Source: a virus
Lineage: Duplodnaviria > Heunggongvirae > Uroviricota > Caudoviricetes
Virus record (IMG/VR): IMGVR_UViG_2711768032_000008
Location: 1-38,383 of that record
Strand: one strand, 5' to 3'
DNA length: 38,383 bases
The first letter of the stretch is position 1. Every line of letters starts with the position of its first letter. The notes beneath the pieces are model-generated. The model searched no databases, was not told where the DNA came from, and saw only the letters and a list, made by a program, of their open reading frames with translations. Both the position numbers and the translations under genes were made by a program. Positions 6,857 to 37,836 of the stretch are shown one piece after another.

Positions 6857-8029
6857 TTACGCGCTGACCTGGCTGGAGAAATCCAGCAGGTACTGATCGG
6901 TGATGCGCTGGCGCAGCATCAGGTTTTCAAGCGGCGGCACCGGCGTGTAGTCGTAGTCGATAGTGAGTTTCCCTGCTTTCAGGGAGTCTTTATCGTTCAC
7001 CGACTCATCCAGCCAGCAGTCTGCACCGATGATGTAGCCCTGCGTTTTCAGGCTGCGCAGCTTGGCGCGGATACCTTCGATAATGTCGCGGGCCAGTGAC
7101 GGATTCAGTGGTTTATCCACGGCCCACATATGCCCCTCTGCAATCGTGTCAGCCATCACCTGCGCCGTGCGGGTGTAGTTTTCAAACGCAAACAAGGGAT
7201 CGTCACTGAGGCAGCGGGAACCCCAGAAGCGGAACCCGTCTTTGCAGATCAGCGTGGTGACGTCATTCTGGTTCAACAGTCCCGCGTCCGTTGCCGGGTC
7301 CTGCAGGTCCCAGAACACATCAGCGGAAATGCCGGTGACGCCATTCACTCCCACGTTGGACAGGGTTTTGTGCCATCCGGTCTGTTCGTCGATTTTGGCG
7401 CGCAGACCGAGCGCACGGGCCGAGGCGTAAGCCGTGGCATCGGCTTTCAGAACGGTGTCAAAGTTGATGAAATCAGGCCAGATCAACATCCCCTCTCGCT
7501 GGCTGAAATTGTCCCGGTAAGCAATGGCTTCCTCCACCGTCTTGCAGCCATAGGCAGACAGGTAGGCAAACCCGCGCAGGCTCTGCGCAACACTCATCAG
7601 CTCAGTGGCTACCGCCTGCGTGTCATGCCCCGGCACACCGAGAATACGCGGCTTAACTTTCAGTTGCGACTGCGCAGAAAGCAGCGCTTTCATCCCCGTT
7701 TTTTTACCGTCAGATGTCACGCCACCGATAATATTGGAGGTGGTTTCCGCTTCGGTTTCGCCCTGCGCCACGCGCACAACAACCGTCACGGGTTTTGACT
7801 GGTCGGCAATAGCATCCAGCGAACGAGCCAGCGTGCCGGACTCGCCTGCTTTACCGCTGGCGGTCAGCACGTCGGTAAGCAGGACCGGCTTATTGAGGGG
7901 GAACACGGACGCATCAGCATCATCGCCGGTGCAGACCATGCCCACGATGGCGGTACTCACCGTGGTAATGGATCGGGTGCCCTCGTTGACTTCAACAACG
8001 CGCACACCGTGGTGGTAATCCTGAGCCAT
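6857..8029 (-). CDS. FI: Tail sheath protein FI
   Basis: Start chosen at [21 protein letters not shown] (tracked ORF extends upstream to 8134); resembles P2 FI from memory. Confidence 0.85.
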
Positions 8030-8100
8030 AAGGCAATTCTCCGGTTTACAGGGATGCCTTATGTTCTGGTCGATAAGAGAATGATGCACGTGTTTCAGAA

Positions 8101-8118
8101 TGTACTGACTCTGGCACA
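8101..8118. promoter_or_regulatory. TGT-N12-ACA dyad upstream of FI (Ogr-type late promoter element, candidate P_F)
   Basis: TGTACTGACTCTGGCACA centred about 80 bp upstream of the FI start codon. Confidence 0.45.
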
Positions 8119-8488
8119 ATTTCTCTGTTTTCAACCAGATGGATTAGCCGGAAATTTCTTATACAGTGTGGAAATGCCTACATCAAAAAGTAGTGCCACG
8201 TGCTGACGCTTTCCCCCAGAAACAATTAATATCCCTCCCTGAGCCCTCTGTTTAGGTGTTAGCTTTGGCCTTAGTGTAGGGCTTCAAGTGATGTTGTTCG
8301 GCAACCAATTCAATGCTACTAGCATTGAGCTATGTGAGAAGGGACTACTTTTTCGATTTAATAAAATGTTAGTTTTAAATGTCGAGAGGCAAGGTAATAT
8401 TGGCAAAACAATATTTTTAACACAGCGTGTAAAAAATATTTTTATCTGGTAGAATCAGAATATTCTTAACCATACTTGGAAGCATTTT

Positions 8489-9556
8489 GTGAAGCTAACA
8501 AAAGAACAAAGTGATATTTTATATATCGTTAAAGGAATTGGGATTTTCACTGTTGTAATTGGTCATAGCTGGGGTATTCTTGTAAGTTTAACAAAACCTT
8601 ATTTTTACCATATGCCATTATTCTTTTTTATCGGTGGTTTTTTCCTGAGTGGTGAAGAACCAATTAAAGCCGCAACAAGAACCATCAAAAAAATCACCAC
8701 TTACTTAATAATAACATACATTATAATAGGGGTAGCATCAGAAATAATATCTTCCTTTTATGAAGTGGATTTTGGAACACCTTTTTCAACAGATACCATT
8801 AGAACCGTAGTTGCAACTTTAGAACATAATTTTCATAACAACGAATTATTTTTTGTCGGATGGTTTCTTTTTGCATATGCGCTGGCAAATATCACATCAG
8901 AAATAATACTATCATTACTATTGAAAATTAAAAACAATAGTTTAAAAAAAGCAGCACCTATTATCACTGCAATCATACTAGGTGTTGTATCCGTAAATTT
9001 CACAGCACATATTTATAAAAACTCCGAGTTGCAAATTTACAATCTAATCTCACAAGTGCTTTATGCCTCAATGTTTATGTTAATTGGATATTCCATCCGC
9101 AATATAGCGTTAAACTTTAAAAATAACATGTTATCTATCGTGTTATTCGCTTTAGTGGTGCTATTATATTTAACCGGCGTTGCAAAACAAATGATAATGT
9201 CATGGAGCACTTATCCGTCTGGTTTTATTATTTCAAGCATTGTAGCACTATCTTGTATTTTATTAATATTCTTTGCAGCTCAACATATAAACAAAACTGT
9301 TCTATCCGCCTTTTTTATTGATGCCGGAAAATACTCTAGAAACATAATGTCATACCACCTCTGCATATTTGTAATGTTAGACATATGTTTTTCAACCATA
9401 GGCTTATGGGATATGAAGAATACAAAAACGCTTTCTCACTATCAAAGTTCATATTCTCAACTCTTGTATCCTTTCATCGCAGCGGTAGTCCCATTATACA
9501 TAGCAAAAATATTATCGAGAGGGAAAAGCAAAATAATATCAATCACCTCTCAATAA
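8489..9556 (+). CDS. Acyltransferase family 3 integral membrane protein (OafA/Oac-like)
   Basis: 355 aa, about 10 hydrophobic segments, N-terminal ...GIGIFTVVIGHSWG motif typical of acyltransferase_3; AT-rich; GTG start; lies between tail fibre assembly and sheath genes (P2 Z/fun position). Confidence 0.7.
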   Translation: MKLTKEQSDILYIVKGIGIFTVVIGHSWGILVSLTKPYFYHMPLFFFIGGFFLSGEEPIKAATRTIKKITTYLIITYIIIGVASEIISSFYEVDFGTPFSTDTIRTVVATLEHNFHNNELFFVGWFLFAYALANITSEIILSLLLKIKNNSLKKAAPIITAIILGVVSVNFTAHIYKNSELQIYNLISQVLYASMFMLIGYSIRNIALNFKNNMLSIVLFALVVLLYLTGVAKQMIMSWSTYPSGFIISSIVALSCILLIFFAAQHINKTVLSAFFIDAGKYSRNIMSYHLCIFVMLDICFSTIGLWDMKNTKTLSHYQSSYSQLLYPFIAAVVPLYIAKILSRGKSKIISITSQ

Positions 9557-9574
9557 AAAAATTAAATATGTAAT

Positions 9575-10012
9575 CTAAAATTTTGGAGTGGTCGGCCAAT
9601 GAATGTTAGGTGCGCTAGAGGTATCTACCGCTTCAAGCGCATCTAAATAATCAATCCAATCGTTATACTGATTTTTCTCATCATTTGTCAAACGCGCCAT
9701 TGCTGCTTTACCAGGCCACTGCTTACTGTTCATAAAATAATTCGCTTGCTCAATCAGTTTATCTCTCTGGGCTTCAGCATACTCGATATGTTCTTCATGA
9801 GTAGGAGGAGGAGCGTCAACCCAACAGGGTAGATTATCCTTACTAACGCCTCTAATTTTCCCCTTTGGTGGAACGGATGTATACTCTTCAAATATCTTTT
9901 CGCTCACACTAATACCATCTTCTGGCCATTCACCAGAGATAATGTAGTTCTCTTTATATGCGATGTTGTAGAAAATATTTTCTGATGGGCTAAAAAAATA
10001 AATATCAATCAT
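9575..10012 (-). CDS. Tail fibre assembly protein (gpG/Tfa-like)
   Basis: 145 aa with Tfa-like motifs GEWPEDG, PPKGKIRG, WVDAPPPTHEE and C-terminal APNIHWPTTP; directly downstream of the tail fibre gene. Confidence 0.8.
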   Translation of the reverse strand: MIDIYFFSPSENIFYNIAYKENYIISGEWPEDGISVSEKIFEEYTSVPPKGKIRGVSKDNLPCWVDAPPPTHEEHIEYAEAQRDKLIEQANYFMNSKQWPGKAAMARLTNDEKNQYNDWIDYLDALEAVDTSSAPNIHWPTTPKF

Positions 10013-10014
10013 AA

Positions 10015-11289
10015 TTAGTTACCTATCGCTAAATAGTACCCTGATTCATCTGCTGCTGCGGCTTGCTGCGTTCTGGAGGCGCAAACTGCTGTATATCCTG
10101 TTTTTGTAAATCCAGTAACCCCCCATACGTTAACTGCAGTATATTTGGTTGGCCCTGCGGCAGAAGCTTCTGTCAATAAAAATGATCTACAGGCAGTAGG
10201 AAAAGCAAAGGGAAATGTTCCAGATACGGCTCCTGTCATAGTGTTACTATTAGTGGTTTGCCCCCACTGCAAAATATTTCCTCCGGGCAGTGGACACCAA
10301 TTAGCCCCGCCACCTCCCAAACCAAGGTATTGGAGAAGACCTGAAACACTTTTCCCGCTGAGATCAGACAGGGTGGTATCCAGAGGTTGCTTACCTGCCA
10401 GGGAGTTTGTAATTGTCGTGGCAAAATTAGGGTCATTACCCAGCGCCGCCGCCAGCTCATTTAGCGTGTCCAGTGCAGCCGGTGAAGATGCCACCAGTGC
10501 AGCAATAGCTGATTTCACAAAAGCAGTAGTTGCAATCTGCGTATTGTTCGCCGTCTGCGTCGCAGTAGGAGCTGTAGGCGTTCCGGTCAGCACAGGGTTT
10601 GCCAGCGGCGCCTTGAGCGCCAGCGCATTGTTTAACGCCGTTACCACTGCCTGCACAAAGGCCGTGTTTGCAAGCTGCGCGGAATTATTGCCTGCCGGTG
10701 CCGTCGGCGCTTTTGGCGTGCCGGTGAGTGTCGGACTGTCTTTTGGTGCATACTGCGAATGAGGATCAACAGCAGCAAGATGCTTTGCCATCAGGTCATC
10801 CACATACACCCTCAGCTCCAGTACCTTGTCATCCACATACTTGCGGGTTGCCAGAACCACAGCAGGGTCAATTTTCAGGGTGATGTTATCGGTGCTGCTG
10901 GTAATCAGTACCATACGCACGGTCTGCGTGCGTCCGCTGCCCTCCGCCAGCTTCGGCTTGTAGCTCTCCGGGCAGTTTCCCACAGCAATCAGTGCACCAG
11001 TTTCATCAAACAGGCCGACTTCACGGATCCACCACCCGCCCTCATTTTCCGGGATCACCTGCTCAGCAATAATCTGGCTGTTGTTCTGCGGGTCGATATA
11101 CAGCATATTCAGCGCTGCGCGGCGCTCCTCAGCCACTAACGTGGTCTGTTGCGCGTTGGGTGTGGGCAGTACACCGCCACCGCTGCCCACCGCCATATGG
11201 GTAATTTTCAACGGGACACCGAGTGCGGCGGCGCTTGCCAGTTTCGCCGCGCCGATATCCGTCAGCAGGGTATAAAATTTTGCGCTCAT
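10015..11289 (-). CDS. H: Tail fibre protein (gpH-like)
   Basis: 424 aa; conserved P2 H-like N-terminus, variable Ala/Thr-rich repeat-containing C-terminal region. Confidence 0.85.
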   Translation of the reverse strand: MSAKFYTLLTDIGAAKLASAAALGVPLKITHMAVGSGGGVLPTPNAQQTTLVAEERRAALNMLYIDPQNNSQIIAEQVIPENEGGWWIREVGLFDETGALIAVGNCPESYKPKLAEGSGRTQTVRMVLITSSTDNITLKIDPAVVLATRKYVDDKVLELRVYVDDLMAKHLAAVDPHSQYAPKDSPTLTGTPKAPTAPAGNNSAQLANTAFVQAVVTALNNALALKAPLANPVLTGTPTAPTATQTANNTQIATTAFVKSAIAALVASSPAALDTLNELAAALGNDPNFATTITNSLAGKQPLDTTLSDLSGKSVSGLLQYLGLGGGGANWCPLPGGNILQWGQTTNSNTMTGAVSGTFPFAFPTACRSFLLTEASAAGPTKYTAVNVWGVTGFTKTGYTAVCASRTQQAAAADESGYYLAIGN

Positions 11290-11891
11290 GGGTTCACTCT
11301 CATTGTGTCAATAACATGGACCGCCCCGCCCTCATATGCGGTGCCGCCGGAAATAATGGTTTCGTTGATATACGGGTAGATCGTGATTTCTTCGCCGGTG
11401 TAGGTGGCTGCCACCACAAAATACGGGCCGCCTGTCTGCAGGTTGATGGACATGCCAGCCAGGTGACGGCTGCATGGTTTGGCGTCACCGATCAGGCGCT
11501 CCAGCTCCAGATAGGTTTCTTCTGTTATGCCCTGGTCCTGCACGCCAATATCCAGACGGAATGTCCCCGGCGTCTCGCCGGTCTGCCACCACTCAATGAT
11601 GCGGATCAGGAAGCCGAACGGCTCCACCACACGCCGCACGGCACTGGTTGTCCCTTTGTGCTGATGGATATAAAAAGCGTCCTGCACAACGCGGCGCTTG
11701 ACGCTTTCTGTCCAGCTCTCATCCCAGCGGTCAACAGAAAACGCCCAGGCCAGATAAGGCAGGAACCTGCTCGGGCAGGTTGCCGGGTTCCATAAATCGC
11801 GCAGCGATACCTGCAGATCGGAAATCCCGCTGCAGGTCTGCGCCAGTCGGCGCTCAAGCGGCGACGAACCCGGCGGCAACAGACTATTCAT
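11286..11891 (-). CDS. I: Baseplate protein I (gpI-like)
   Basis: Start chosen at MNSLLPPGSSPLE (tracked ORF extends to 11957); overlaps J end. Confidence 0.8.
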   Translation of the reverse strand: MNSLLPPGSSPLERRLAQTCSGISDLQVSLRDLWNPATCPSRFLPYLAWAFSVDRWDESWTESVKRRVVQDAFYIHQHKGTTSAVRRVVEPFGFLIRIIEWWQTGETPGTFRLDIGVQDQGITEETYLELERLIGDAKPCSRHLAGMSINLQTGGPYFVVAATYTGEEITIYPYINETIISGGTAYEGGAVHVIDTMRVNP

Positions 11892-13817: not shown

Positions 13818-14624
13818 ATGAGTGTTATGAATCCAATAAGTTCTAATATATTTAATGCTGAATTTTTAAATACCCCGGCAGCGGCACTTGCCGCATGGAT
13901 TTCCATTATTGGAGCTGCTATAACTCTGGTGACGATAGTTATAAGAGCACTATTCAAATATAGAAAGTCTCATGATGTAATTTTGAAAAAATCAGGAATA
14001 CCTGCGTTTATATTAAATTTTTTTCTTATACGAATATCATTAAAAAGGCTGCCTACTATCACATGGGCTGAAAAATCAATCGCGGTTCTCTTTTCACTTC
14101 TTTTTTTGTATGCAATTTATATTTTTGGTCCAGTTTTCATCCAAACCATTAGAACCCCACCAAATAGCACATTGCTTTATTGGATAAAGTCCGGTGAATC
14201 ATTTTACATATCAAAAAAACTGGCGACTGCAGCTACAATATTAACCACTCCTGATTGGGAAATATCAAAGGATGATTGCGAACAGTCATCCTCTGCCAGT
14301 TCAGAGAAGTACAAATCATTAACTATCGAACATAAAGAAATTCTTTGTAAACTACTAACCACTGATGAAGGGAATGCTTACATTGATAAAGCAGTCAAGA
14401 AGTTCGTTAAAGACAAATTCTTTATCTATTCCTTTACCCCAATGACCATATTTATTCTATTATGGCTTTCTTTGGGTTTTATGCTGACCATTCACTATTC
14501 TAAAAAAGTCAGGAAATATATTCTAACTGAACAAAAAAGTGCAATTCATTGGGCAAATGGTGAATTCAAGACAGAAGGAATCTATTCAATATATCAAGAG
14601 TTAGAACGTAAGACTCACCATTAA
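13818..14624 (+). CDS. Hypothetical membrane protein (prophage cargo between S and V)
   Basis: 268 aa, AT-rich, opposite strand to the late operon; hydrophobic segments (AAALAAWISIIGAAITLVTIVI, IAVLFSLLFLYAIYIFGPVFI, IYSFTPMTIFILLWLSLGFML); SD-like AGGTGG upstream; no family recognised. Confidence 0.6.
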   Translation: MSVMNPISSNIFNAEFLNTPAAALAAWISIIGAAITLVTIVIRALFKYRKSHDVILKKSGIPAFILNFFLIRISLKRLPTITWAEKSIAVLFSLLFLYAIYIFGPVFIQTIRTPPNSTLLYWIKSGESFYISKKLATAATILTTPDWEISKDDCEQSSSASSEKYKSLTIEHKEILCKLLTTDEGNAYIDKAVKKFVKDKFFIYSFTPMTIFILLWLSLGFMLTIHYSKKVRKYILTEQKSAIHWANGEFKTEGIYSIYQELERKTHH

Positions 14625-23252: not shown

Positions 23253-24656
23253 TTAAGGATCCCTGTTGATTTGTTTTTTTACGTGAAAAGCATTATTAAA
23301 TTTATCGACAAGCTCGCCATCTTCTAATGCGCTGAACAATGACCTGTTTTGCACATTGAATAATTCAATCTCATCGCCCCGCCCCTCAATATAGACATCT
23401 ATAATATGCGATGCCTTACTACCTTCTCCAAAGTCTCGAAAAAAACAAACTAGGTTATCTAAGTTGTTAGGTGTTATAGTTTTAAAGTTATCTAAAAAAC
23501 TTTGATATAATGAATTTATAACTTCAGACTGATTGTTATCAAATGAGTCGCGATATAACCCCCAAGCAATAGTGAAGTTATCTCTAGACTTTCCATCTAG
23601 AACTAACTCATTCATCTTTTTGATTTCATCATCTAGCATTAACTTATTATAATACCCATCCTTAACAGCACTAATAAGGATCCTATCCAAGTCAGATGTG
23701 TTGTGATATTTGTATTTATTGATAATTTCCTTCCAAGCTAGTTTCTTTGAGTCATTGTCTTTTTCATTGTTAAATGAACCATAGAACATAAATTCATCTT
23801 TTTCTATAAACTGTATCGGAGGTACTAATTCATCATCATTAAAACAATAATAGCTCCATGAAAAAAGTACAATAGAATGCATAATGGAGTACAAAATACC
23901 ATCATCCATATTCTTAGTATGAAGATACGCCTCATCGATTAAACGTTCTATTTTTTTTAGCACACGGATATTAGTTATTCCGACACTTGAGGTTAAAGAT
24001 CTCAAATCATCATGAAATCTTTTTTTTCCGTCATACGCGATTTGCGCACACTCATAAGGTGTTGGTTTAAACGTAAATTCAATATCAATTACTTTTTCTT
24101 TATAAGTTTCATAGTCCTTAGTTTCACTAGTCCCATCATTTAATAGCAATACCACTTTGCATTTTTTTTGTTCTTTAAGATGTGAAACCAATCCTAATAC
24201 ATCCTTCAACGGCAATCCATCGCCTTTCCTCTCTAAATCATCTATGCATACTATAATATTTTTTAGAGACATAAATGACAATGCTTCTAAGGCTGGTGCA
24301 AAATCTTTCACATAAGGCATGTTTTTCACAAAGTTCATTGCCTTTCTACCAAAACCCTCTGACAGAGCCAATGCATTTTGTTTAAAAGTTTCAATATTTG
24401 GCTCGATACCAATTGAAGATGTTGGAATCGCATTTTCAAATATAGAATACTTTAAGGCATCAAGAGAGTTCACTCCGAATAATGACACGTATGAATATCG
24501 TTCAAATTCTATATTAACTTCCTGCTTCGCTGTTTGTAAAAAATTATTCCAGCCATAGGTCTTTCCTACACCCCACTTACCTTTTATCGCTACTACCGCT
24601 GATTCTTCATTATTAAGAAAATTAAATATTTGCTCGCGAACTATAGCTATTGACAT
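23253..24656 (-). CDS. KAP-family P-loop NTPase (candidate anti-phage cargo)
   Basis: 467 aa; Walker A GKWGVGKT with the Trp typical of KAP NTPases, Walker B-like IVCIDDLERK; strongly AT-rich compared with flanking phage genes; between cos and Q. Confidence 0.75.
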   Translation of the reverse strand: MSIAIVREQIFNFLNNEESAVVAIKGKWGVGKTYGWNNFLQTAKQEVNIEFERYSYVSLFGVNSLDALKYSIFENAIPTSSIGIEPNIETFKQNALALSEGFGRKAMNFVKNMPYVKDFAPALEALSFMSLKNIIVCIDDLERKGDGLPLKDVLGLVSHLKEQKKCKVVLLLNDGTSETKDYETYKEKVIDIEFTFKPTPYECAQIAYDGKKRFHDDLRSLTSSVGITNIRVLKKIERLIDEAYLHTKNMDDGILYSIMHSIVLFSWSYYCFNDDELVPPIQFIEKDEFMFYGSFNNEKDNDSKKLAWKEIINKYKYHNTSDLDRILISAVKDGYYNKLMLDDEIKKMNELVLDGKSRDNFTIAWGLYRDSFDNNQSEVINSLYQSFLDNFKTITPNNLDNLVCFFRDFGEGSKASHIIDVYIEGRGDEIELFNVQNRSLFSALEDGELVDKFNNAFHVKKQINRDP

Positions 24657-25239: not shown

Positions 25240-27660
25240 TTAGTACCACTGCCGCCATTTGTCATCCTCCTGCAGACGCTGATCCCGGTAGAAAAGGCGT
25301 AGCCCGGCTCCGGATGGGATGCTACCGCCTCGTAAAAGCAGATCCACTTCCGCATCACTTGCATCAAATCCTCTGGAACTCAGTTCTGCCTCGAGCTGCA
25401 GTCGTTGCTGTTCTGAAATGCTCTGTTTGTATGCTTTTTTCCGCTTCGGTTTTACCAGTCTCAACCTAGCGGTGAGTTCCCACCGTTCCTTCTGGCTCAT
25501 GTTGTGCAAGTAATCCTGCAACTCCTTCTCATCCATGGATTTAATATCGGGTAAATCCCCTTCTGCCTGGTTCAAATTTTCAACAGGGGGACAGTTATTG
25601 CCACGAGTCCAAGGGGCGCAAGCGCCCTGGTCGGCTGTCGCCTCCTGAACGTCAACGGCCTTGCGAACCATTTTCCACTTCACCGCGTGCGTGCAAATCT
25701 TGCCCTCTGCAATCGGGGACCAGATGCCATAAATACGGATACCGTGATCGCCGTAGGCGCTCGGCTCGTCGTTAAGCTCGTAGGCCGTTCTGACAAGGTG
25801 ATGTTTGCGGGGAACCAGCACGCCACCCTGTTTCATAATGTAGGTGGCAAAGCAGCCCGCATCAGCAGCAGCCAGTACCGCATCCAGACGCGGGTTATCC
25901 AGTACCGGCGCGCCCGCTTTGCGCTCGCCCTGCACTCTGGCGGCCTGACCAGCCAGCAAACGCAGCTCGCGGTATGCCTGGCGCCCCGGAATACCAAAGA
26001 AGCGAAACTGTTGGACGCGATGCAGTGACGCCCATGCACTAACATGCTCGGCGCTGTCGCGCAGCGATCTGCCGGTTTCTTTGCTGATTTCTTTAGCCAG
26101 TCCGCGCCCGTCAATATTCTTGCTGATGTATTTGGCGATATAGCTGGTCGGCGTGCCCTTACGCGGGTTGATAAGCTCGGATTTGAAGCGCGGCCCCGTG
26201 TTGTTGCCCAGCTCCTCGCGGTCTTCACGAATGGCAAATTTACGCAGCAGCGCGGTAATGGATCGACGGTCTTTTTTGCGCATGAAGCACAGCAGGTGCC
26301 AGTGCACGGTACCGTCATGGTGCGGTTCTGCAACGCGGACGCCATACCAGCGCAGCCCGGCTTTGTGCATTGCCTTGCGGAAAGCGGCGAACGTATCAAC
26401 CAGGTAATCACTGCTCTGGCGGACTGTGGCGCTGGTCCACTTCGGATTTGGTCTGCCGTTGTTAAGGGTTGCGTGGAAGCGTGACGGGCAGGTGATGGTA
26501 TAGAACACAGCGCAGTCTCCGCGCATTTCCGCGATCAGCTCCAGCCCTTTCACACAGGCCATCATTTCATTACGACGGTGCGCCGGGTTGCTGCTGCTGG
26601 CGTTCACCACGTCTTCCATATCCAGCGTGTCGCCGTCTGCATTAACCAGCTCGTGCGACTGGAAAAACTCCAGCGATTTGCGGCGCTGCTCGCGTTTGTG
26701 GATCACGGTTTCATAGCTGACATACGGCGATGCTTTCTTGTTAACCAGGCATACTGCACGCAGTTGTTCCTCCCGCCATTCACAGCGCATCTGCCACAGC
26801 TTGCGATACCACCAGTCTGCGCACAGCATACGTGCAAGCGAAGGTGGGATAAGCTCATAAGGCACGGGTTTACGGCGGCGTTTCTTGCGGCGCAGTTTCT
26901 CAAATGCAGGTGGTATAACTTCAAGTCGCATAGTTTCTGCAGCGACTTTTTCCCATGTCTGCCTGATTTCTTCCAGTTCTACATCATCACTTGCAGACAG
27001 ATCGCCCCAACCCGCATCAAGACACATGCTCATGTGTGCCGCAACCAGCGTGGAAAGACGTTTGACCTGATCCTGATTCATTTCGGGCAGAACCAGCAGC
27101 CCCTCCAGTCCATCATGGCTCGCCATGAACCGGAATGAAGCAGACACCTGACTATCACGCACGCACTCCAGCCGTTCAATACACGGTCTGATAGTTTCGC
27201 GCAGGTAGCGGGAATACGCTTTCGGGCGTCCCAGGCTATGGAAGTATTTAATCCGCTCCAGCAAAGGCTTGCTGATATGGGTGGGCATGGCGCTTACATC
27301 AGCCAGGATAACCAAATCGGGGTTAACGCGTTGCTGCTCGCGGGCCATTTTGGCATGGCTAATCAGCCGATCCTGTTCCATTTCACGCTGGACAGGATCT
27401 CTGGATTCATTGAAGAAATAACGTTCCCAGACCTCATCACTCAACGCCTCACGGCGCAGTTGCTCCTGCTCGTTATCAGTAGCGTAAAGAGTGATCAGGT
27501 TTGAAAGCGCAGACTCCGGCGCAACTTCCGCCGGGTCCAGATACGGATTAACCGCTTTTTTTGGGGTATTCCATGGAAAGGCCACGGCGGCCTCGATCGG
27601 GCCGCTTTTGTCTCTTGCTAATTTTAGCGTCACTGGGAGACTCCAAGGCTCACAAAGCAC
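25240..27660 (-). CDS. A: Replication initiation endonuclease A (gpA-like, rolling-circle Rep)
   Basis: 806 aa; HxH-type motif ([10 protein letters not shown]) and downstream YIAKYISK segment; early-region position. Confidence 0.9.
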
Positions 27661-30231: not shown

Positions 30232-31251
30232 ATGACCATCAGAAAGCAGCCAAACGGAAAATGGTTGTGTGAATGCTACCCGAACGGGCGCGACGGCAAG
30301 CGTGTGCGCAAACAATTTTCGACAAAAGGCGAGGCCATAGCATTCGAAAACTTCACCATGGATGAAGTGAACAAAAAACCATGGCTAGGGGAAAAGGAAG
30401 ATCGGCGGAATCTGTCAGAAGTGATAGAGCAATGGCACTCACTCTACGGACAAACGCTTGCAGACCCCAAACGCCTGATGGCGAAACTCAACATTATTTG
30501 TAATGGTCTTGGCGATCCCATCGCCTCAGAGTTAACCGCCGGTGATTTTACGAAATACCGCGAAGCGCGGTTAAAAGGTGAAGTGCGAAATGAAGAGGGC
30601 GCACTTATGTCGCCGGTTAAGCCCCGCACGGTAAACCTTGAACAACGCAACCTATCATCGGTTTTTGGCACACTGAAAAAGCTGGGCCACTGGTCAGCGC
30701 CCAATCCGCTCGCCGGATTGCCAACATTTAAAATCGCTGAGGGCGAACTGGCATTCCTGGCCCCGGAAGAAATTAAACGCCTGCTGGATGCCTGCGCTGA
30801 TTCTCAAAGCCCCAGCCTGCTGATGATTGCAAAAATATGCCTGGCCACCGGCGCACGCTGGAGTGAAGCCGAAAACCTGCAGGGCCATCAGTTATCGAAA
30901 TACCGGATCACCTACACAAAGACCAAAGGCAAGAAAAACCGAACCGTGCCAATATCTCAGAAACTGCACGATGAACTCCCCAAAAACAGAGGGAAGCTAT
31001 TCACCCCATGCAGAAAAGCCTTTGAGCGTGCAGTGAAGCGAGCTGGTATCGACCTGCCAGAAGGTCAATGTACTCATGTGCTTCGGCATACATTCGCCAG
31101 TCACTTTATGATGAACGGCGGAAACATACTGGTACTGCGCGATATTCTTGGTCACTCTGATATTAAAATGACAATGGTCTATGCACACTTCGCTCCAGAC
31201 CATTTAGAAGATGCAGTGACGAAAAACCCACTTGCTATGTTGGAAGTTTAA
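30232..31251 (+). CDS. int: Tyrosine integrase (P2/186-type)
   Basis: 339 aa; C-terminal catalytic region with HVLRHTFASH and LGHSDIKMTMVYAH (Tyr). Confidence 0.9.
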   Translation: MTIRKQPNGKWLCECYPNGRDGKRVRKQFSTKGEAIAFENFTMDEVNKKPWLGEKEDRRNLSEVIEQWHSLYGQTLADPKRLMAKLNIICNGLGDPIASELTAGDFTKYREARLKGEVRNEEGALMSPVKPRTVNLEQRNLSSVFGTLKKLGHWSAPNPLAGLPTFKIAEGELAFLAPEEIKRLLDACADSQSPSLLMIAKICLATGARWSEAENLQGHQLSKYRITYTKTKGKKNRTVPISQKLHDELPKNRGKLFTPCRKAFERAVKRAGIDLPEGQCTHVLRHTFASHFMMNGGNILVLRDILGHSDIKMTMVYAHFAPDHLEDAVTKNPLAMLEV

Positions 31252-32401: not shown

Positions 32402-32446
32402 ATGTAGGAATTTCGGACGCGGGTTCAACTCCCGCCAGCTCCACCA
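32402..32446 (+). repeat. attR core: displaced copy of the ssrA 3' end (45 bp)
   Basis: Identical to 1016-1060; no tmRNA 5' portion upstream. Confidence 0.85.
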
Positions 32447-32611
32447 CTTTTTAGTTGTTTGAAGTTCAATGAAGTCTACTAAGCCCACACAGCACAAGCT
32501 CTGCGGGCTTTTTTACGTCTATTGTCGTCCAGTGAGAATTGCTGAGAACTACGAGTTATGGCACCCTGAATGGGACCCACTAAGAAGGGTCCAAAAACCG
32601 AGGGTCCCAAA

Positions 32612-33841
32612 ATGGCAAAAATCGCTAAGAAGCTCACTGACACTGAAATCAAAAGCACCAAGCCAGCCGATAAAGAAATCAACTTGTTTGACGGTGATGG
32701 TCTGATTCTACGAATCGCTCCTTTGGCGAAAGGAGGCAAGAAAAATTGGTATTTCAGGTATGCAGTACCAGTGAGCAAGAAAAGAACCAAAATGAGCCTT
32801 GGGACATATCCTCACCTTACCCTTGCAAGAGCCAGAGCCTTACGTGATGAATATCTCTCCTTTCTGGCAAATGGTGTTGATCCCCAAATCCATAACAACG
32901 ATAAGGCGAAGGCATTAAAGAGTGCTACTGAGCACACTCTCCAAGCCGTAGCGCGGAAATGGTTAGATGAGAAGGTAAAGACATCAGGTATCTCACAAGA
33001 CCATGCAGCAGACATCTGGCGCAGCTTAGAGAGAAATGTCTTTCCCGGTCTGGGTAATGTCCCTATCAATGAGATCCGACCTAAGCTCTTAAAACAACAC
33101 CTTGATCCTATTGAGCAACGAGGCGTATTGGAAACTCTACGCCGTATCATTTCACGTCTGAATGAAATCTTCCGGTGGGCAGCTACTGAAGAACTTATTG
33201 AGTTCAACCCGGCTGACAACCTTGGTCAAAGATTCAGTAAACCAAAAAAGCAAAATATGCCTGCCCTTCCCCCAAGCGAATTGCCAAGGTTTATGGAATC
33301 TTTGACGAATGCGTCAATCCGGTTGGAAACACGTATGCTAATTGAATGGCAATTGTTGACATGGGTTCGTCCGGGTGAAGCCGTTCGCGCAAGGTGGTCT
33401 GATATTGATACAACCAACAGCATTTGGAACATTCCTGCTGATTTCATGAAAATGAAAAAGCTTCACAAAGTTCCTTTGAGTAAAGAAGCTTTGCGCATCC
33501 TTGAATTAATGAAATCAATAAGTGGGCATAGAGAATGGGTTTTCCCCAGCATAAAAGCGCCTCTTAATCATATGCATGAACAAACAGCCAACGCAGCTAT
33601 CATCCGAATGGGGTTCGGAGGCGAGCTTGTAGCTCACGGTATGCGTTCTATTGCACGAACAGCGGCAGAGGAGTCTGGTAAATTCAGAGCTGAAGTTCTT
33701 GAGGCAGCGCTTGCCCACTCGAAAAAAGATGAAATTATCGCAGCATACAATCGTGCAGAATATCTGATAGAGCGACAGAGTTTGATGCAATGGTGGAGTG
33801 ATTACGTTCAAGCTCAAAGATCAAATGCTCTGGTAGCCTAA
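32612..33841 (+). CDS. Tyrosine integrase, P4/CP4-57 (IntA)-like
   Basis: Start chosen at MAKIAKKLTDTEIKSTKP (tracked ORF from 32570); N-terminal LTDTEIK...DGDGL motif and C-terminal HGMRSIARTAA...AYNRAEY catalytic region. Confidence 0.85.
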   Translation: MAKIAKKLTDTEIKSTKPADKEINLFDGDGLILRIAPLAKGGKKNWYFRYAVPVSKKRTKMSLGTYPHLTLARARALRDEYLSFLANGVDPQIHNNDKAKALKSATEHTLQAVARKWLDEKVKTSGISQDHAADIWRSLERNVFPGLGNVPINEIRPKLLKQHLDPIEQRGVLETLRRIISRLNEIFRWAATEELIEFNPADNLGQRFSKPKKQNMPALPPSELPRFMESLTNASIRLETRMLIEWQLLTWVRPGEAVRARWSDIDTTNSIWNIPADFMKMKKLHKVPLSKEALRILELMKSISGHREWVFPSIKAPLNHMHEQTANAAIIRMGFGGELVAHGMRSIARTAAEESGKFRAEVLEAALAHSKKDEIIAAYNRAEYLIERQSLMQWWSDYVQAQRSNALVA

Positions 33842-33879
33842 GTATCAGAATAGCTAATATAATCCTGAAGGTAAAGAAA

Positions 33880-34296
33880 ATGGAAACCCTATTCAAAGTT
33901 TTTGAAAAATTTAGTTCCAGACCACTTTTTTTTATTTTTTTCGGACTCTCACTTTGTGAATTTTTTCAGAAACAATCTGTTCTGATGAATCCATCAGCAG
34001 ATAACATCGCGAAATTATTCGCAGCCATGATATTAGTTGTTTTTTTTACTTGGGGATTTGAATGGCTAATCTTCAAGTTCAATGTAAACCTTGAACCTCA
34101 TGATCAAGGCGATATTGGACCAACAATTGGAACGGCTACTTTAGCTGTATACTTAGTTTATGCCTTTCACTTTCTCAGTGAAAATCCTGAAGCATTAAAT
34201 TTAAAGTTATTAACTAACTCTGGCTTTATATACAGCACAACTCTATTATTATTCTCATTAGAATGCATGAAGCTTAGAAGACTTAAACAAAAATAA
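33880..34296 (+). CDS. Small hypothetical membrane protein (about 4 TM segments)
   Basis: 138 aa, AT-rich, hydrophobic stretches (LFFIFFGLSL, FAAMILVVFFTWGFEWLIF, TATLAVYLVYAFHFL, FIYSTTLLLFSL). Confidence 0.5.
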   Translation: METLFKVFEKFSSRPLFFIFFGLSLCEFFQKQSVLMNPSADNIAKLFAAMILVVFFTWGFEWLIFKFNVNLEPHDQGDIGPTIGTATLAVYLVYAFHFLSENPEALNLKLLTNSGFIYSTTLLLFSLECMKLRRLKQK

Positions 34297-34367
34297 ACAA
34301 CATCATTGTGATGATAAATATAAAATAGGCATGGCGAAAAAAAATCACCACGCCTAAAATATAATAA

Positions 34368-36134
34368 TTATGGTAGCATCATTGATACATAATCCACACC
34401 AATCCTTGAGCTATACTGAGACGCTATAGCCTGATATCTTTCTGCATAACCAGTTCTCAGTTGAGATTTAAGTTTGAGTCGGACAGGAACATTTTGCACG
34501 TTGCCATCCATATTACTTAAAAACACGGCAGAAATAATATTTTTTTCTTCGCCATCAACTGTTGTTCCATGATTCAACACCACCATATAATCAACAACAG
34601 GAAGCGTTTTATCCCCTTCGAAAATAGAGAGATATTTTCTTTGATTTTTATGCATTACATATATATATTTCGAATGTTCAGCAAATGGCAATGCTTTACT
34701 CTGACTGGCGTTAAAAAGCTCCAGAACTTTAATGAGCCTGTGCGGACTTAATCTTACATGGTGAGGGTCGTTACCCTGAGTAGGAACCAAATCACATGCC
34801 GCAGATACACATAAATACCATTTGTTCGACTCTGTATCAAAGAAAATAGTGCCAGTAGAAATATGACCATCTTCAAAATTCTTTGAAGACAAATTCATAT
34901 TTAAAGCATGATACATTTCGTGATAAGTATCATTATTTGATGGCAGATCCATTTTTGAAGAGCAATATTGGAGCAATGCAGCAACTCCGCTGTTAGCGTA
35001 TTCATTTGAATAGCTATCAAAAACACTTTTGATAAATTCATCCAGCGTATTATTATTTTTAAGTCTTTGATAAAGCTCTTCTGATAAATTACCAAATACA
35101 AAGTCAATATTTCTACATCTAATATCAGGCGAGTCTGATTTTAATATCTCATTTAACCACGCAGCTTGACCGTAATGATCGTTAGCCAAATGATTTACAA
35201 AAGATAAAGCCTCAGCTTCGATTGCATTCTGAATTTCAGATTTTATTAACTGATAATAAGATGGTTTCCATTCAATGAGAGAATCATTGAGAGTTTGCCA
35301 AATCCTATCTCCATCGTTTTCATGATCATCTTGAACCTTATGAAATAGGGAGACAAAGATATTACCACATTGAATCCATTTTACTCCGCTTTCATCACCC
35401 CGAATGACATTGCCAGATGTGTTGCTAGAAATAATTGCATTTCTAGACACAGCATATTCTGCAATCATTTTTGCAATGAAGTTTTTATCCTTTTGATCCT
35501 CCAACACAGCATCATCATGTATTAATCTTTTAATTCTTCTACAAGGCTTACTGTCTTTAATATAGGCTATTGTTTCATCTCTTGTGAGAGCTTTATTACC
35601 ATTATCATTTAAGTTCGGTAATACAACGTCTTCCCAATAACTTTGGACATCTTCATTATCGTAGTCAATGATCAAGCTGTTGATATCCAGAGCACCTTTG
35701 AGAGTCGATGATATCTGCATCCAAACCGTTTCTAAATTCTCTCTAGTATATATTACAATCATATTTAAATGATCGGAGTCTTTCAAATCTTGTAATAGTT
35801 TAAGTGTTTTATCAGGTGCATTATTATCAAGATGATAATCTACAATAATAAGATCTGATTTCCTAATCCGATCCACATCGAAATTAACAGAACCATTGTC
35901 AACATCACAAATCATATTTTTAGATTGAAAAAAGCTCTCAAGAGTAGCGGCTCGTTTAGATGAGTCAATTTTGTTGTAGTCTAAATCAACTTCGTTATTC
36001 AACGCCCTGATTGATTCAGAATACGTCAGAAAATCGTCATCAATCATGACAACGGAACGAATTGCATTTTCGCAGAAAGTTTTCTGGACAAGAGAATTAT
36101 AATTTGCCACTGTCATATTAGAACTCCACTCCAT
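34368..36134 (-). CDS. Receiver (REC)-like domain protein with large uncharacterised C-terminal domain
   Basis: 588 aa; N-terminal VVMIDDD ... DLIIVDYHL ... NMIVIYT resembles a response-regulator receiver fold; the remaining ~450 aa match nothing I recognise; AT-rich; 17-bp overlap with the upstream kinase-like gene. Confidence 0.6.
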   Translation of the reverse strand: MEWSSNMTVANYNSLVQKTFCENAIRSVVMIDDDFLTYSESIRALNNEVDLDYNKIDSSKRAATLESFFQSKNMICDVDNGSVNFDVDRIRKSDLIIVDYHLDNNAPDKTLKLLQDLKDSDHLNMIVIYTRENLETVWMQISSTLKGALDINSLIIDYDNEDVQSYWEDVVLPNLNDNGNKALTRDETIAYIKDSKPCRRIKRLIHDDAVLEDQKDKNFIAKMIAEYAVSRNAIISSNTSGNVIRGDESGVKWIQCGNIFVSLFHKVQDDHENDGDRIWQTLNDSLIEWKPSYYQLIKSEIQNAIEAEALSFVNHLANDHYGQAAWLNEILKSDSPDIRCRNIDFVFGNLSEELYQRLKNNNTLDEFIKSVFDSYSNEYANSGVAALLQYCSSKMDLPSNNDTYHEMYHALNMNLSSKNFEDGHISTGTIFFDTESNKWYLCVSAACDLVPTQGNDPHHVRLSPHRLIKVLELFNASQSKALPFAEHSKYIYVMHKNQRKYLSIFEGDKTLPVVDYMVVLNHGTTVDGEEKNIISAVFLSNMDGNVQNVPVRLKLKSQLRTGYAERYQAIASQYSSRIGVDYVSMMLP

Positions 36135-37836
36135 TGAACTGGATCACAAAATTAGCGCCATCTTTTATTAAATAGTTATCGCCTTCATCAGGTTCTGAAT
36201 ACCATATTTTATGATGTGCAACAGCAAGGTTTTCTCGACATAGATACAGACCTACCCCATGTCCATTTGCTCTTTTGCTATAAAATAGTTCAAATAGTCG
36301 CGGGATATCATCGGTATCAATTGCCGGACCAGAATTTGCTATGATAACCAAAGAATTCACAAAACCAATCTTTATGAGCCTATTATTTGACAGACTGACC
36401 CAATACATTGCATTGTTGATAATATTAGTAAAAACAGGATAGATCCTTGATGGTATATCTGTTATTGCGATTTGCTTAAACTCTTCACTAAATTCAATAG
36501 TTATTCGTTGCCGTTCGAAACGCTCCCCAAAGAACTTCAGGACATAATCCATGATATTTTTTCCAGTTATTCTCTGCCTGGATTGATAACCTGATATTTT
36601 CAAAGGTGATAAGAAACGTATTTGTTGAGTAAGCGATCTGTGAGCATTTAACGCCAATGAAAAACCAGGGTGTTCTTTTACAGAAGTAGGAAGAGAGTTT
36701 AGTCCTCTGGTTACCATAGAATCCATTTCTTCAAGTTCATGAGATGTTATCTCAACACTAATACCTAACTGTGCAAGCGCGTTTAAACTTTTAGCTTTTT
36801 CTTCAAAATATGAGCGTTCTTCTTCAGATAATGAGAATGCTGAATCTAAGTTTATACCTTCAAATAATCTATCGAGACCTTTTATTATTGATTGATATTT
36901 GAAAGTTAGGGTATCAACTGACTCAACATATAAACTATCGAGCAAATTAAACACATTTTCAATTTGTGAATCATTATCTATTGAATCAACAACTGATATA
37001 GTTTTAGCATAATAATCACTTCGATCAACCTTTATTTCATCGGCCCATTTTTTTAAAAGAGAATGTATCTTCTCCTCTATCGTGTTATTAAACTTAGTTA
37101 GTTTAGAATTAATAATACCTTGATTTTTTTCAAGGTGATTTTTCGCTGCCAATGAAGGCTCAAGTTTATTTAATTCAGAATCAAGTTTATTAATTGCTAA
37201 CTTCATTTGTAGAATATACGCAGAGAACTCATTAAATTTATCTCTGTAGTCTCTATATTTCTCTTCATACATTCCAAGTTTTGGAGGTTTGATAGGCGTT
37301 TTAATTTCACTGCGCAACGCATCTAAGTTTGTAAGATCACTGTCTATAATTTTAAGATAGTTTAAATCTAACGAACCATCAGTTTTATCAAGCTTAGTTT
37401 TCAGCCTTTTAACAGCCTCCAAGGAAGCATCAAGAACTGGTGTCTGATTCTTCAAAGCTTCTGAAAAACTTTTTTGTGTTGATTTTCGAGCTTGTTGTTG
37501 AGCAGATTTTCTTAACTCTTTTTCACGCTTAACTTGTTCTAAAAGCTCTTTACGGTCATCAGAACGTGAACCAAAAAATCTATCAGCAAGTTCAGTTAAC
37601 AAATTAGATATAATAGTTTTCAGTTCTCTTGCAGCCTGGTATCTTATGAATCCCTCTCTCCCCGACTTATCTTTCAGCTCTTTATTACTGGATTGAGTAA
37701 TTCCAATATAACCAAAAATCCTTCTATTAGACCAATAATATCGCCCTGCATTCCATGAACGTCTTTCTTCTATCTGGAAGAAATCATTATCTACTCGACC
37801 ATAAGGTAATACTCTCAAGCTATCCCTAAAAATCAT
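36118..37836 (-). CDS. Histidine-kinase-like protein (H-box + HATPase_c), 5'-truncated by IS3
   Basis: C-terminal TSHELEEM (H-box-like), N-box NIINNAMYW, G1 IANSGPAID, G2 GHGVGL; long coiled-coil-rich N-terminal region; frame stays open upstream of the first Met to the IS3 junction (in-frame stop only at 37963-37965, inside the IS). Confidence 0.6.
   Translation of the reverse strand: MIFRDSLRVLPYGRVDNDFFQIEERRSWNAGRYYWSNRRIFGYIGITQSSNKELKDKSGREGFIRYQAARELKTIISNLLTELADRFFGSRSDDRKELLEQVKREKELRKSAQQQARKSTQKSFSEALKNQTPVLDASLEAVKRLKTKLDKTDGSLDLNYLKIIDSDLTNLDALRSEIKTPIKPPKLGMYEEKYRDYRDKFNEFSAYILQMKLAINKLDSELNKLEPSLAAKNHLEKNQGIINSKLTKFNNTIEEKIHSLLKKWADEIKVDRSDYYAKTISVVDSIDNDSQIENVFNLLDSLYVESVDTLTFKYQSIIKGLDRLFEGINLDSAFSLSEEERSYFEEKAKSLNALAQLGISVEITSHELEEMDSMVTRGLNSLPTSVKEHPGFSLALNAHRSLTQQIRFLSPLKISGYQSRQRITGKNIMDYVLKFFGERFERQRITIEFSEEFKQIAITDIPSRIYPVFTNIINNAMYWVSLSNNRLIKIGFVNSLVIIANSGPAIDTDDIPRLFELFYSKRANGHGVGLYLCRENLAVAHHKIWYSEPDEGDNYLIKDGANFVIQFNGVEF

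Follow-up and report, generated by a model that had tools for sequence, protein, structure and literature searches.

What does an AT-rich gene for a membrane acyltransferase do between the tail genes of a P2-like prophage, and on which surface molecule would its product act? The question is raised by IMG/VR virus record IMGVR_UViG_2711768032_000008 (Caudoviricetes), of which the whole stretch of 38,383 nucleotides (nt) was analyzed and is called the window here. We found the gene, which belongs to acyltransferase family 3 (AT3), to be a moron in a Fels-2-like prophage of the P2 family, in the slot between the genes for tail-fiber assembly (G) and the sheath (FI). Its product is assigned to a subfamily of AT3 proteins that lack an SGNH domain and resemble the Salmonella enzyme WbaK. 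The enzyme probably O-acetylates the O-antigen in lysogens, from which a changed serotype and changed phage adsorption would follow. This reading is the best supported one because relatives of the protein are found in O-antigen clusters and because the gene is constantly linked to receptor-binding genes. The initial annotation had raised O-antigen acetylation with receptor modification as a possibility, which these two findings strengthen.

An AT3-only membrane acyltransferase gene

8489..9556, plus strand: AT3-only (WbaK-like) membrane acyltransferase gene, 355 amino acids (aa), GTG start, G+C content (GC) 0.316

The gene is one unbroken reading frame of 355 codons. The initial annotation had placed an AT-rich AT3 gene, encoding a protein with 10 transmembrane (TM) helices, at 8200-9556; the end of that span stands, but its start does not, as the gene begins at 8489 and the part from 8200 to 8488 is made up of approximately 70 nt of a DNA-invertase pseudogene remnant and a 217-nt AT-rich upstream region. 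The AT-richness was confirmed, with a GC of 0.316 versus 0.582 in the sheath gene and 0.572 in the conserved N-terminal part of the fiber gene. The family assignment was upheld by a profile search in which the product matched Pfam PF01757 (Acyl_transf_3) with 48.5 bits (E 8.2e-13; cut-off, 31), residues 13-333 being aligned to profile positions 6-315 of 326. Hydropathy gave about 10 hydrophobic segments, and an AlphaFold2 model built with 40 homologues was all-helical with about 10 TM helices (predicted local distance difference test, 95.5; predicted template modeling score, 0.92), in agreement with the proposed 10-TM topology. A core of 10 TM helices is also how AT3 proteins have been described (PMC9833829). 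The model has the TmAT-type fold of the solved transmembrane acyltransferases, and no SGNH domain is fused to it: the protein has 355 aa and a single Pfam domain, and the chain ends past TM helix 10.

Profile searches with the protein in NCBIfam, PHROGs, and PADLOC gave no match, and a sequence search of the PDB returned nothing relevant. The reading frame is not a chance one, since the protein database contains an E. coli protein that is 99% identical, with two differing residues (E 3.8e-220), and 91 relatives at E <= 1e-3. The identity of these relatives, after the 99% copy, drops to 61% (E. albertii), then to 47%, and then to 43-30%.

The AT3 family motif R/K-X10-H in TM helix 1 (PMC9558356, PMC9833829) is present as K15-X10-H26. 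H26 is invariant in all 39 homologues that cover the position, and position 15 is K in 35 and R in 3 of the 39 that have a residue there; OafB has an Arg at the start of the motif, whereas the WbaK-like subfamily mostly has a Lys. A second motif, RXXR on the cytoplasmic face of TM helix 3, has been described as highly conserved, though not absolutely (PMC9833829). At the place where it is expected, the protein has R64-T-I-K67-K68, which is not a strict RXXR, and a basic patch is kept there in the subfamily, with K/R at position 67 in 24 of 40 homologues and at position 68 in 31 of 40. Across these 40 homologues, which go down to 22% identity, 13 columns are invariant (H41, M42, P43, F45, F46, G50, W125, F126, N185, G200, Y242, M287, and H290), and the protein keeps all 13. 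The ratio of nonsynonymous to synonymous substitution rates (dN/dS) was approximately 0.13 against the 61%-identical E. albertii gene, at a saturated dS, and the recorded copies of the gene are 2 nt apart. These features suggest that the gene most likely encodes a functional enzyme.

Relatives, expression signals, and the likely acceptor

Two relatives lie at the end of O-antigen clusters. The Citrobacter protein P0053 (35% identity, E 5e-41) is encoded in the order wzy-GT-GT-manC-manB-wbaP-AT3-gnd-ugd-wzz-his, where GT stands for a glycosyltransferase gene, and the Salmonella protein P0071 (37% identity, E 7e-38), which stands for 1,775 member sequences, is encoded directly upstream of gnd-ugd-wzz-his. 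Both share all of the subfamily-invariant residues, and the relatives at this position, that of wbaK, match more than 88% of the length of the window protein with 33-37% identity. Hong et al. (2013) reportedly identified WbaK as the O-antigen galactose 6-O-acetyltransferase. The published position of wbaK (orf17.4) is after wbaP (PMC3715488), and two reports hold this AT3-only enzyme responsible for galactose O-acetylation of the group E1 O-antigen of Salmonella enterica (PMC3715488; PMC9558356). WbaK resembles the window protein in being AT3-only, without an SGNH domain, but its gene is chromosomal and lies at the end of an O-antigen cluster, whereas the window gene is borne by a prophage. 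In a distance tree, all the members of known context in the clade of the window protein are phage-borne; the wbaK-position proteins fall in the neighboring clade, and another phage clade lies beyond them.

The phage-borne relatives showed a constant gene arrangement. When IMG/VR was scanned, full-length relatives with an identity of 30% or more turned up in 22 loci, each of which has an open reading frame (ORF) that directly follows the AT3 gene and is convergent with it. The distance between the two ranges from a short overlap to a gap of approximately 50 nt in 21 loci and is 177 nt in the remaining one (L112). Where scanned, the adjoining ORF matched Head_binding, Tail_spike_N, Phage_T7_tail, Beta_helix, Peptidase_S74, Caudo_TAP, or tail-fiber/tailspike PHROGs. 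Seven further phage-borne relatives are also directly followed by a convergent tailspike, tail-fiber, or fiber-chaperone gene. The partner is an 868-aa Phage_tail_beta tailspike for the E. albertii relative, an 845-aa tailspike with holins nearby for another, a 786-aa tailspike for an E. coli relative, and a Caudo_TAP chaperone for a relative in another myovirus; relatives in Salmonella and E. coli stand beside P22-type Head_binding tailspikes. In a scan of genome contigs, distant AT3 proteins dominated among the matches listed, and at least four full-length matches were usable. Phage Sf6, the textbook example with an experimentally characterized oac, has the same layout, i.e., the tailspike gene, a 33-nt gap, and the convergent oac gene. 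The 3′ ends of the AT3 and tailspike genes overlap by 35 nt in L012 (9034-9068), and overlaps also occur in L099, L104, L109, and others, which suggests that lysogenic and lytic expression may interfere with each other, through antisense effects or in transcription.

Whether the gene could be expressed from the prophage depends on the region upstream, where the following elements were found.

8407..8443, no strand: AT-rich 17-nt palindrome, 88% complementary, with a 3-nt spacer, covering the -35 region
8447..8455, plus strand: putative extended -10 promoter element TGgTAGAAT, approximately 35 nt upstream of the start codon, inferred from the sequence
8478..8482, plus strand: Shine-Dalgarno-like GGAAG, 6 nt before the GTG, read from the sequence

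Locus L016 has the element TGGTATGAT at the equivalent place, and -10-like hexamers are found in other loci; the upstream regions of the homologues are too diverged for a real alignment, and only the -10-like element lines up. The palindrome is possibly an operator or a regulator binding site. Past the AT3 stop codon, a stable hairpin at 9606-9645 lies within the 3′ end of the coding region of the convergent tail-fiber assembly chaperone (Tfa; region z, -3.6), but it lacks a T run and is not a canonical terminator. A small ORF at 8288-8452 on the plus strand, which overlaps the part of the putative promoter region that precedes the -10 element and has no family match, was treated as spurious. 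We infer that the AT3 gene may have its own expression in the lysogen, and put it no more firmly because a strict scan called neither a promoter nor a terminator.

Several points weigh against O-antigen acetylation in lysogens. The strict consensus scan for sigma-70 promoters gave none upstream of the AT3 gene, and an intrinsic terminator, sought between the AT3 gene and the convergent Tfa gene, was not found. Dam-dependent phase variation is known for oafB and gtr; the region upstream of the AT3 gene has zero GATC sites, and there is therefore no sign of Dam/OxyR phase variation. RXXR is not kept in the subfamily, position 64 being R in 5 of 40 homologues, a loss which marks the subfamily as a variant, yet still within PF01757. 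P2 itself uses the lipopolysaccharide (LPS) core, not the O-antigen, as its receptor. AT3-only enzymes have acceptors that include the enterobacterial common antigen (ECA), capsules, osmoregulated periplasmic glucans, and Nod factors. Among named E. coli proteins, the one that the profile matches best, WecH (hhalign E 9e-5), acetylates ECA. The identity of P0071 with WbaK, which we presume, comes from synteny with the published description and not from a sequence comparison. Finally, the acceptors of AT3 proteins are diverse (PMC9558356).

The main rival explanation holds that the AT3 protein is functional but acts on another envelope glycan, such as ECA, a K-antigen or colanic-acid capsule, the LPS core, or periplasmic glucans. 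WecH aligns with the family profile over 253 columns, better than Sf6 Oac does, many of the adjoining tailspikes have beta-helix/depolymerase domains able to target either capsule or O-antigen, and the substrates of the family vary (PMC9558356). However, the match to WecH is marginal (probability 59%), and the 33-37% full-length identity to the O-antigen-cluster proteins is far above it. Moreover, outside phages, the only contexts in which the subfamily was found in Enterobacteriaceae are at the wbaK position of O-antigen clusters. We regard another glycan as an unlikely acceptor and prefer O-antigen acetylation.

The G/FI slot and the exchangeable cassette

The neighborhood of the gene contains the following features.

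6857..8029, minus strand: tail sheath gene FI (PF04984, PF17482, and PF22671; 390 aa)
8070..10387, no strand: variable cassette in full, as delimited by blastn breakpoints against the closest sister prophage (L159, in E. coli GDSC2227PM)
8131..8271, minus strand: Gin/Cin-type DNA invertase pseudogene remnant, final 45 codons (helix-turn-helix, HTH) and stop codon
9575..10012, minus strand: tail-fiber assembly chaperone (gpG-like, Tfa), PF02413 (Caudo_TAP) at E 3e-31, phrog_188, GC 0.393
10015..10387, minus strand: variable receptor-binding tip of tail fiber H, approximately aa 301-424, with Gp53-like_C (PF21882) at residues 334-424
10388..11289, minus strand: conserved N-terminal, baseplate-proximal part of tail fiber H (PF12571)

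The window begins with smpB and the transfer-messenger RNA (tmRNA), the latter being the only RNA that an Rfam scan of the window found. The tmRNA 3′ end is directly repeated over 45 nt, at 1016-1060 and 32402-32446 (attL/attR), and the two copies flank a prophage of approximately 31.4 kb that has the P2 gene order and an integrase at 30232-31251; it is a P2-like prophage integrated in ssrA. The DNA of its tail region is 85% identical to that of the P2-family phages Fels-2, SopEPhi, and RE2010. The gene order agrees with the earlier placement of the AT3 gene between the tail-fiber assembly (G) and sheath (FI) genes. The AT3 gene is convergent with the Tfa gene across an 18-nt gap, beyond which the whole tail-fiber gene H extends over 10015-11289 on the minus strand; on the other side, the sheath gene most likely starts with the ATG at 8029, as in the 390-aa call of the near-identical locus L003. 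The P2 record has fun(Z) on the opposite strand, flanked by G and FI, and the AT3 gene, which is on the strand opposite the late genes, has the same slot and orientation, so that the equivalence to the Z/fun moron position also holds against the P2 annotation. The two genes share the slot and the orientation relative to G, but P2 Fun(Z) and the AT3 protein have no homology. The content of the slot differs among related phages, being an invertase in Fels-2, another AT3 gene in L159, and fun(Z) in P2.

This slot leads to a second rival explanation, in which the AT3 protein serves as an anti-phage defense of the Z/fun hotspot that does not involve acylation, e.g., by membrane-acting abortive infection or superinfection exclusion. 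The G/FI (Z/fun) slot of P2 is a recognized variable and defense locus according to one report (PMC13586616), P2 Fun(Z) blocks T5 according to the annotation of the P2 record, and a KAP NTPase, matching the PADLOC candidate PDC-S49, occupies another variable slot of the prophage. On the other hand, the AT3 protein has neither a PADLOC match nor similarity to Fun(Z), its catalytic His and acyl-CoA-binding Lys are strictly conserved, and its relatives are found in O-antigen biosynthesis clusters. We consider such a role highly improbable, more so than any other alternative, and retain the O-antigen reading.

A comparison with sister prophages delimited the variable unit. By blastn, L159 is homologous to the window over 7219-8069 (94.8%) and 10388-11400 (97.6%), with no homology between. 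The variable unit, at approximately 8070-10387 (about 2.3 kb), is the AT3 gene, the Tfa gene, and the fiber tip together. The slot of L159 (3636-6902) contains a different AT3 gene (343 aa; PF01757, 64 bits), which is accompanied by a separate Tfa and fiber tip. The L159 AT3 protein has no BLAST or profile similarity to that of the window; the Tfa proteins resemble each other in the C-terminal part only (54% over 72 aa), and the fiber proteins are 95.7% identical over aa 1-324 and unrelated beyond. A third P2-like prophage (IMG/VR L110) again has another fiber tip in this slot, along with an AT3 and a Tfa that are 34% and 28% identical, respectively, to those of the window. Homology of the fiber gene begins at 10316 with L110 and Fels-2 and at 10388 with L159.

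The cassette displaced another system. The G/FI slot of Fels-2 is occupied by a Gin/Cin-type DNA invertase, together with an alternative fiber tip that is invertible and its chaperone. The remnant in the window is 64% identical to the Fels-2 invertase (tblastn, E 2e-17), has an in-frame stop upstream, and is annotated in E. coli EC96 as a partial HTH pseudogene. The AT-rich DNA starts directly after this remnant, and the AT3 cassette therefore replaced the invertase/invertible-segment system: Fels-2/PSP3-type phages have the invertase with an invertible fiber segment at the G/FI junction, whereas the window has the AT3 cassette with 45 invertase codons left. Leftover invertase crossover sites and long inverted repeats around the cassette were sought, and none were found.

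The distribution of the cassette is narrow. Of 5,426 complete E. coli genomes that were searched, more than 1,000 have the N-terminal part of the fiber but none has DNA matching the AT3 gene, the Tfa gene, or the fiber tip, and the AT3 gene of L159 had weak partial DNA matches only (74-76% identity) in two further complete E. coli genomes. The window AT3 gene was found on seven contigs, with an identical prophage context wherever the flanking DNA suffices to judge. In E. coli EC96 (L001), the prophage is 99.94% identical up to 8429, where an IS1 enters (8429/8430; L001 6280-6993). The junction is 60 nt before the AT3 start, inside the palindrome at 8407-8443; the AT3 gene, the fiber gene, and the downstream genes are deleted, and only a fragment of a P-loop NTPase gene follows.

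In another rival explanation, the AT3 gene is a silent or decaying passenger left by fiber-tip recombination, with no role in the lysogen. The strict consensus scan passed no promoter, the cassette is rare (0 of 5,426 complete genomes and the seven contigs), the region is destroyed by IS1 in EC96, and an invertase pseudogene adjoins the gene. However, the full-length ORF, the 13 of 13 invariant residues, the dN/dS of approximately 0.13, and the 2-nt distance between copies speak against decay. In addition, the layout of an AT3 gene beside a receptor-binding protein (RBP) gene is found repeatedly, in myoviral prophages (P2-like and other) as well as in tailspike prophages (P22-like and other), which is hard to explain without selection. 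We find the passenger explanation very unlikely compared with a functional O-antigen acetylase.

Other parts of the prophage and the DNA beyond it also carry accessory genes. A second low-GC moron at 13818-14624 on the plus strand (268 aa; DUF6216) lies between the baseplate gene V and the tail gene S and has no PADLOC match. At the same junction, L159 (9425-11516) has a pair of genes encoding an AAA ATPase and a DUF4435 protein (PARIS-like), and because L159 carries different genes there, the V/S junction is another variable slot. The KAP-family P-loop NTPase (467 aa) is encoded at 23253-24656 on the minus strand in a stretch of approximately 33% GC (PDC-S49, E 1e-26), between the capsid/portal genes and an 806-aa ORF at 25240-27660, taken to be the replication gene; by the P2 gene order, this site is the cos-proximal old/tin hotspot. 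Past attR, a second tyrosine integrase gene (32570-33841) is followed by low-GC genes up to 37836, encoding a Response_reg_2 protein (PF19192; 34368-36134) and a HEF_HK/HATPase protein (36118-37836), with no PADLOC match. The region 32570-37836 resembles an island of its own, placed in tandem at ssrA, and may encode a two-component-like defense system.

Known systems, the proposed mechanism, and its meaning

Phage-borne O-antigen acetylation is a known strategy, and phage-encoded AT3 O-antigen acetylases are well established, including Sf6 Oac, SfII OacD, PhiV10 Oac, and BTP1 OafB; in the accepted receptor-masking model, an acetylase encoded by a low-GC moron is expected to be active in lysogens (PMC9558356). 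We compared the window protein with the group composed of Oac (OacA) of Shigella phage Sf6, OacB, OacD, PhiV10 Oac, and BTP1 OafB. Sf6 Oac belongs to the same Pfam family, has the same stand-alone 10-TM architecture, and is likewise encoded convergently with a receptor-binding gene. However, BLAST found no homology to it beyond the general AT3 motifs, and hhalign aligned TM1-3 only (probability 13%). Sf6 is a P22-like podovirus with an enzymatic tailspike, whereas the prophage here is a P2-like myovirus with a fiber and a chaperone. ORF16 of SPC-P1, a P22-like phage of Salmonella Paratyphi C, has been described as an uncharacterized AT3-like moron with a GC of 31.65% and a GTG start, located between the tailspike gene (ORF15) and the integration genes (PMC3022927). 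This description, rather than the sequence, matches it to the Salmonella relative P0008 (37% identity, beside a Head_binding tailspike), and ORF16 probably belongs to the WbaK-like subfamily of the window protein, in another phage type and another slot. The solved transmembrane acyl-CoA acyltransferases of the TmAT superfamily, HGSNAT and GWT1, are 11-14% identical, eukaryotic, and larger, and have different acceptors.

Against this background, three aspects are new: the carrier, a P2-family myovirus with an AT3 gene in its Z/fun slot; the WbaK-like subfamily, which has no PHROG and no homologue among the deposited phage genomes searched; and the joint exchange of the AT3 gene with the chaperone and the fiber tip. 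A tblastn search of 50,697 deposited phage genomes with the AT3 proteins of the window and of L159 found nothing, and this negative is real, since Sf6 Oac, used as a control, found 33 records. In a limited literature search, no P2-like phage was found to have been reported with an AT3 gene, and neither acyltransferases nor the O-antigen are mentioned in the main text of Rousset 2022 or of a 2026 survey in Nucleic Acids Research.

As modeled on OafB, Oac, and HGSNAT (PMC9833829, PMC12423673), the protein would act as a stand-alone enzyme of the inner membrane whose 10-helix bundle forms a pore admitting cytoplasmic acyl-CoA, presumably acetyl-CoA. K15 and the basic patch of K67/K68 would bind the CoA phosphates, and H26, in TM helix 1 near the periplasmic face, would catalyze acetyl transfer to a hydroxyl group on a sugar of a surface polysaccharide, most likely the O-antigen repeat unit. 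Transcription of the gene runs against the late operons and probably starts at an extended -10 promoter of its own, so that the lysogen would express the gene. The outcome would be lysogenic conversion with an altered O-antigen epitope and an altered phage receptor; an effect on phage adsorption would be expected, and a block of superinfection by the same phage, raised by the initial annotation, may follow. The AT3 gene, the tail-fiber tip, and the chaperone seem to have been acquired, and are exchanged, as one cassette, and receptor specificity and the receptor-modifying enzyme therefore travel together.

A broader possibility, which we put forward tentatively and rate below an even chance, is that the AT3 gene, the chaperone, and the fiber tip form a co-selected "lock-and-mask" cassette that follows a general rule across phage types. 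The fiber tip would recognize one surface glycan and the linked AT3 protein would acetylate that same glycan, so that one recombination event that swaps the cassette would alter both host range and self-exclusion. The tail-to-tail layout, with 3′ ends that sometimes overlap, might make the lysogenic (AT3) and lytic (RBP) transcription mutually exclusive. Through the WbaK-like AT3 proteins, the rule would span P2-like myoviruses and P22-like, epsilon15-like, and other tailspike phages.

Prophage O-antigen acetylases alter serotype, vaccine epitopes, and phage susceptibility and have been well studied in podoviruses of Shigella and Salmonella. The present locus would place this strategy in a P2-family myovirus of E. 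coli, in the Z/fun slot, which recent surveys of P2 hotspots have mainly seen as a site of intracellular defense systems. Standard phage annotation misses the subfamily because it is absent from deposited phage genomes and PHROGs. The cassette may offer a practical receptor prediction for a fiber tip of unknown specificity, by looking at what the linked enzyme modifies, and matched pairs of fibers and masking enzymes could be used in the engineering of host range for phage therapy.

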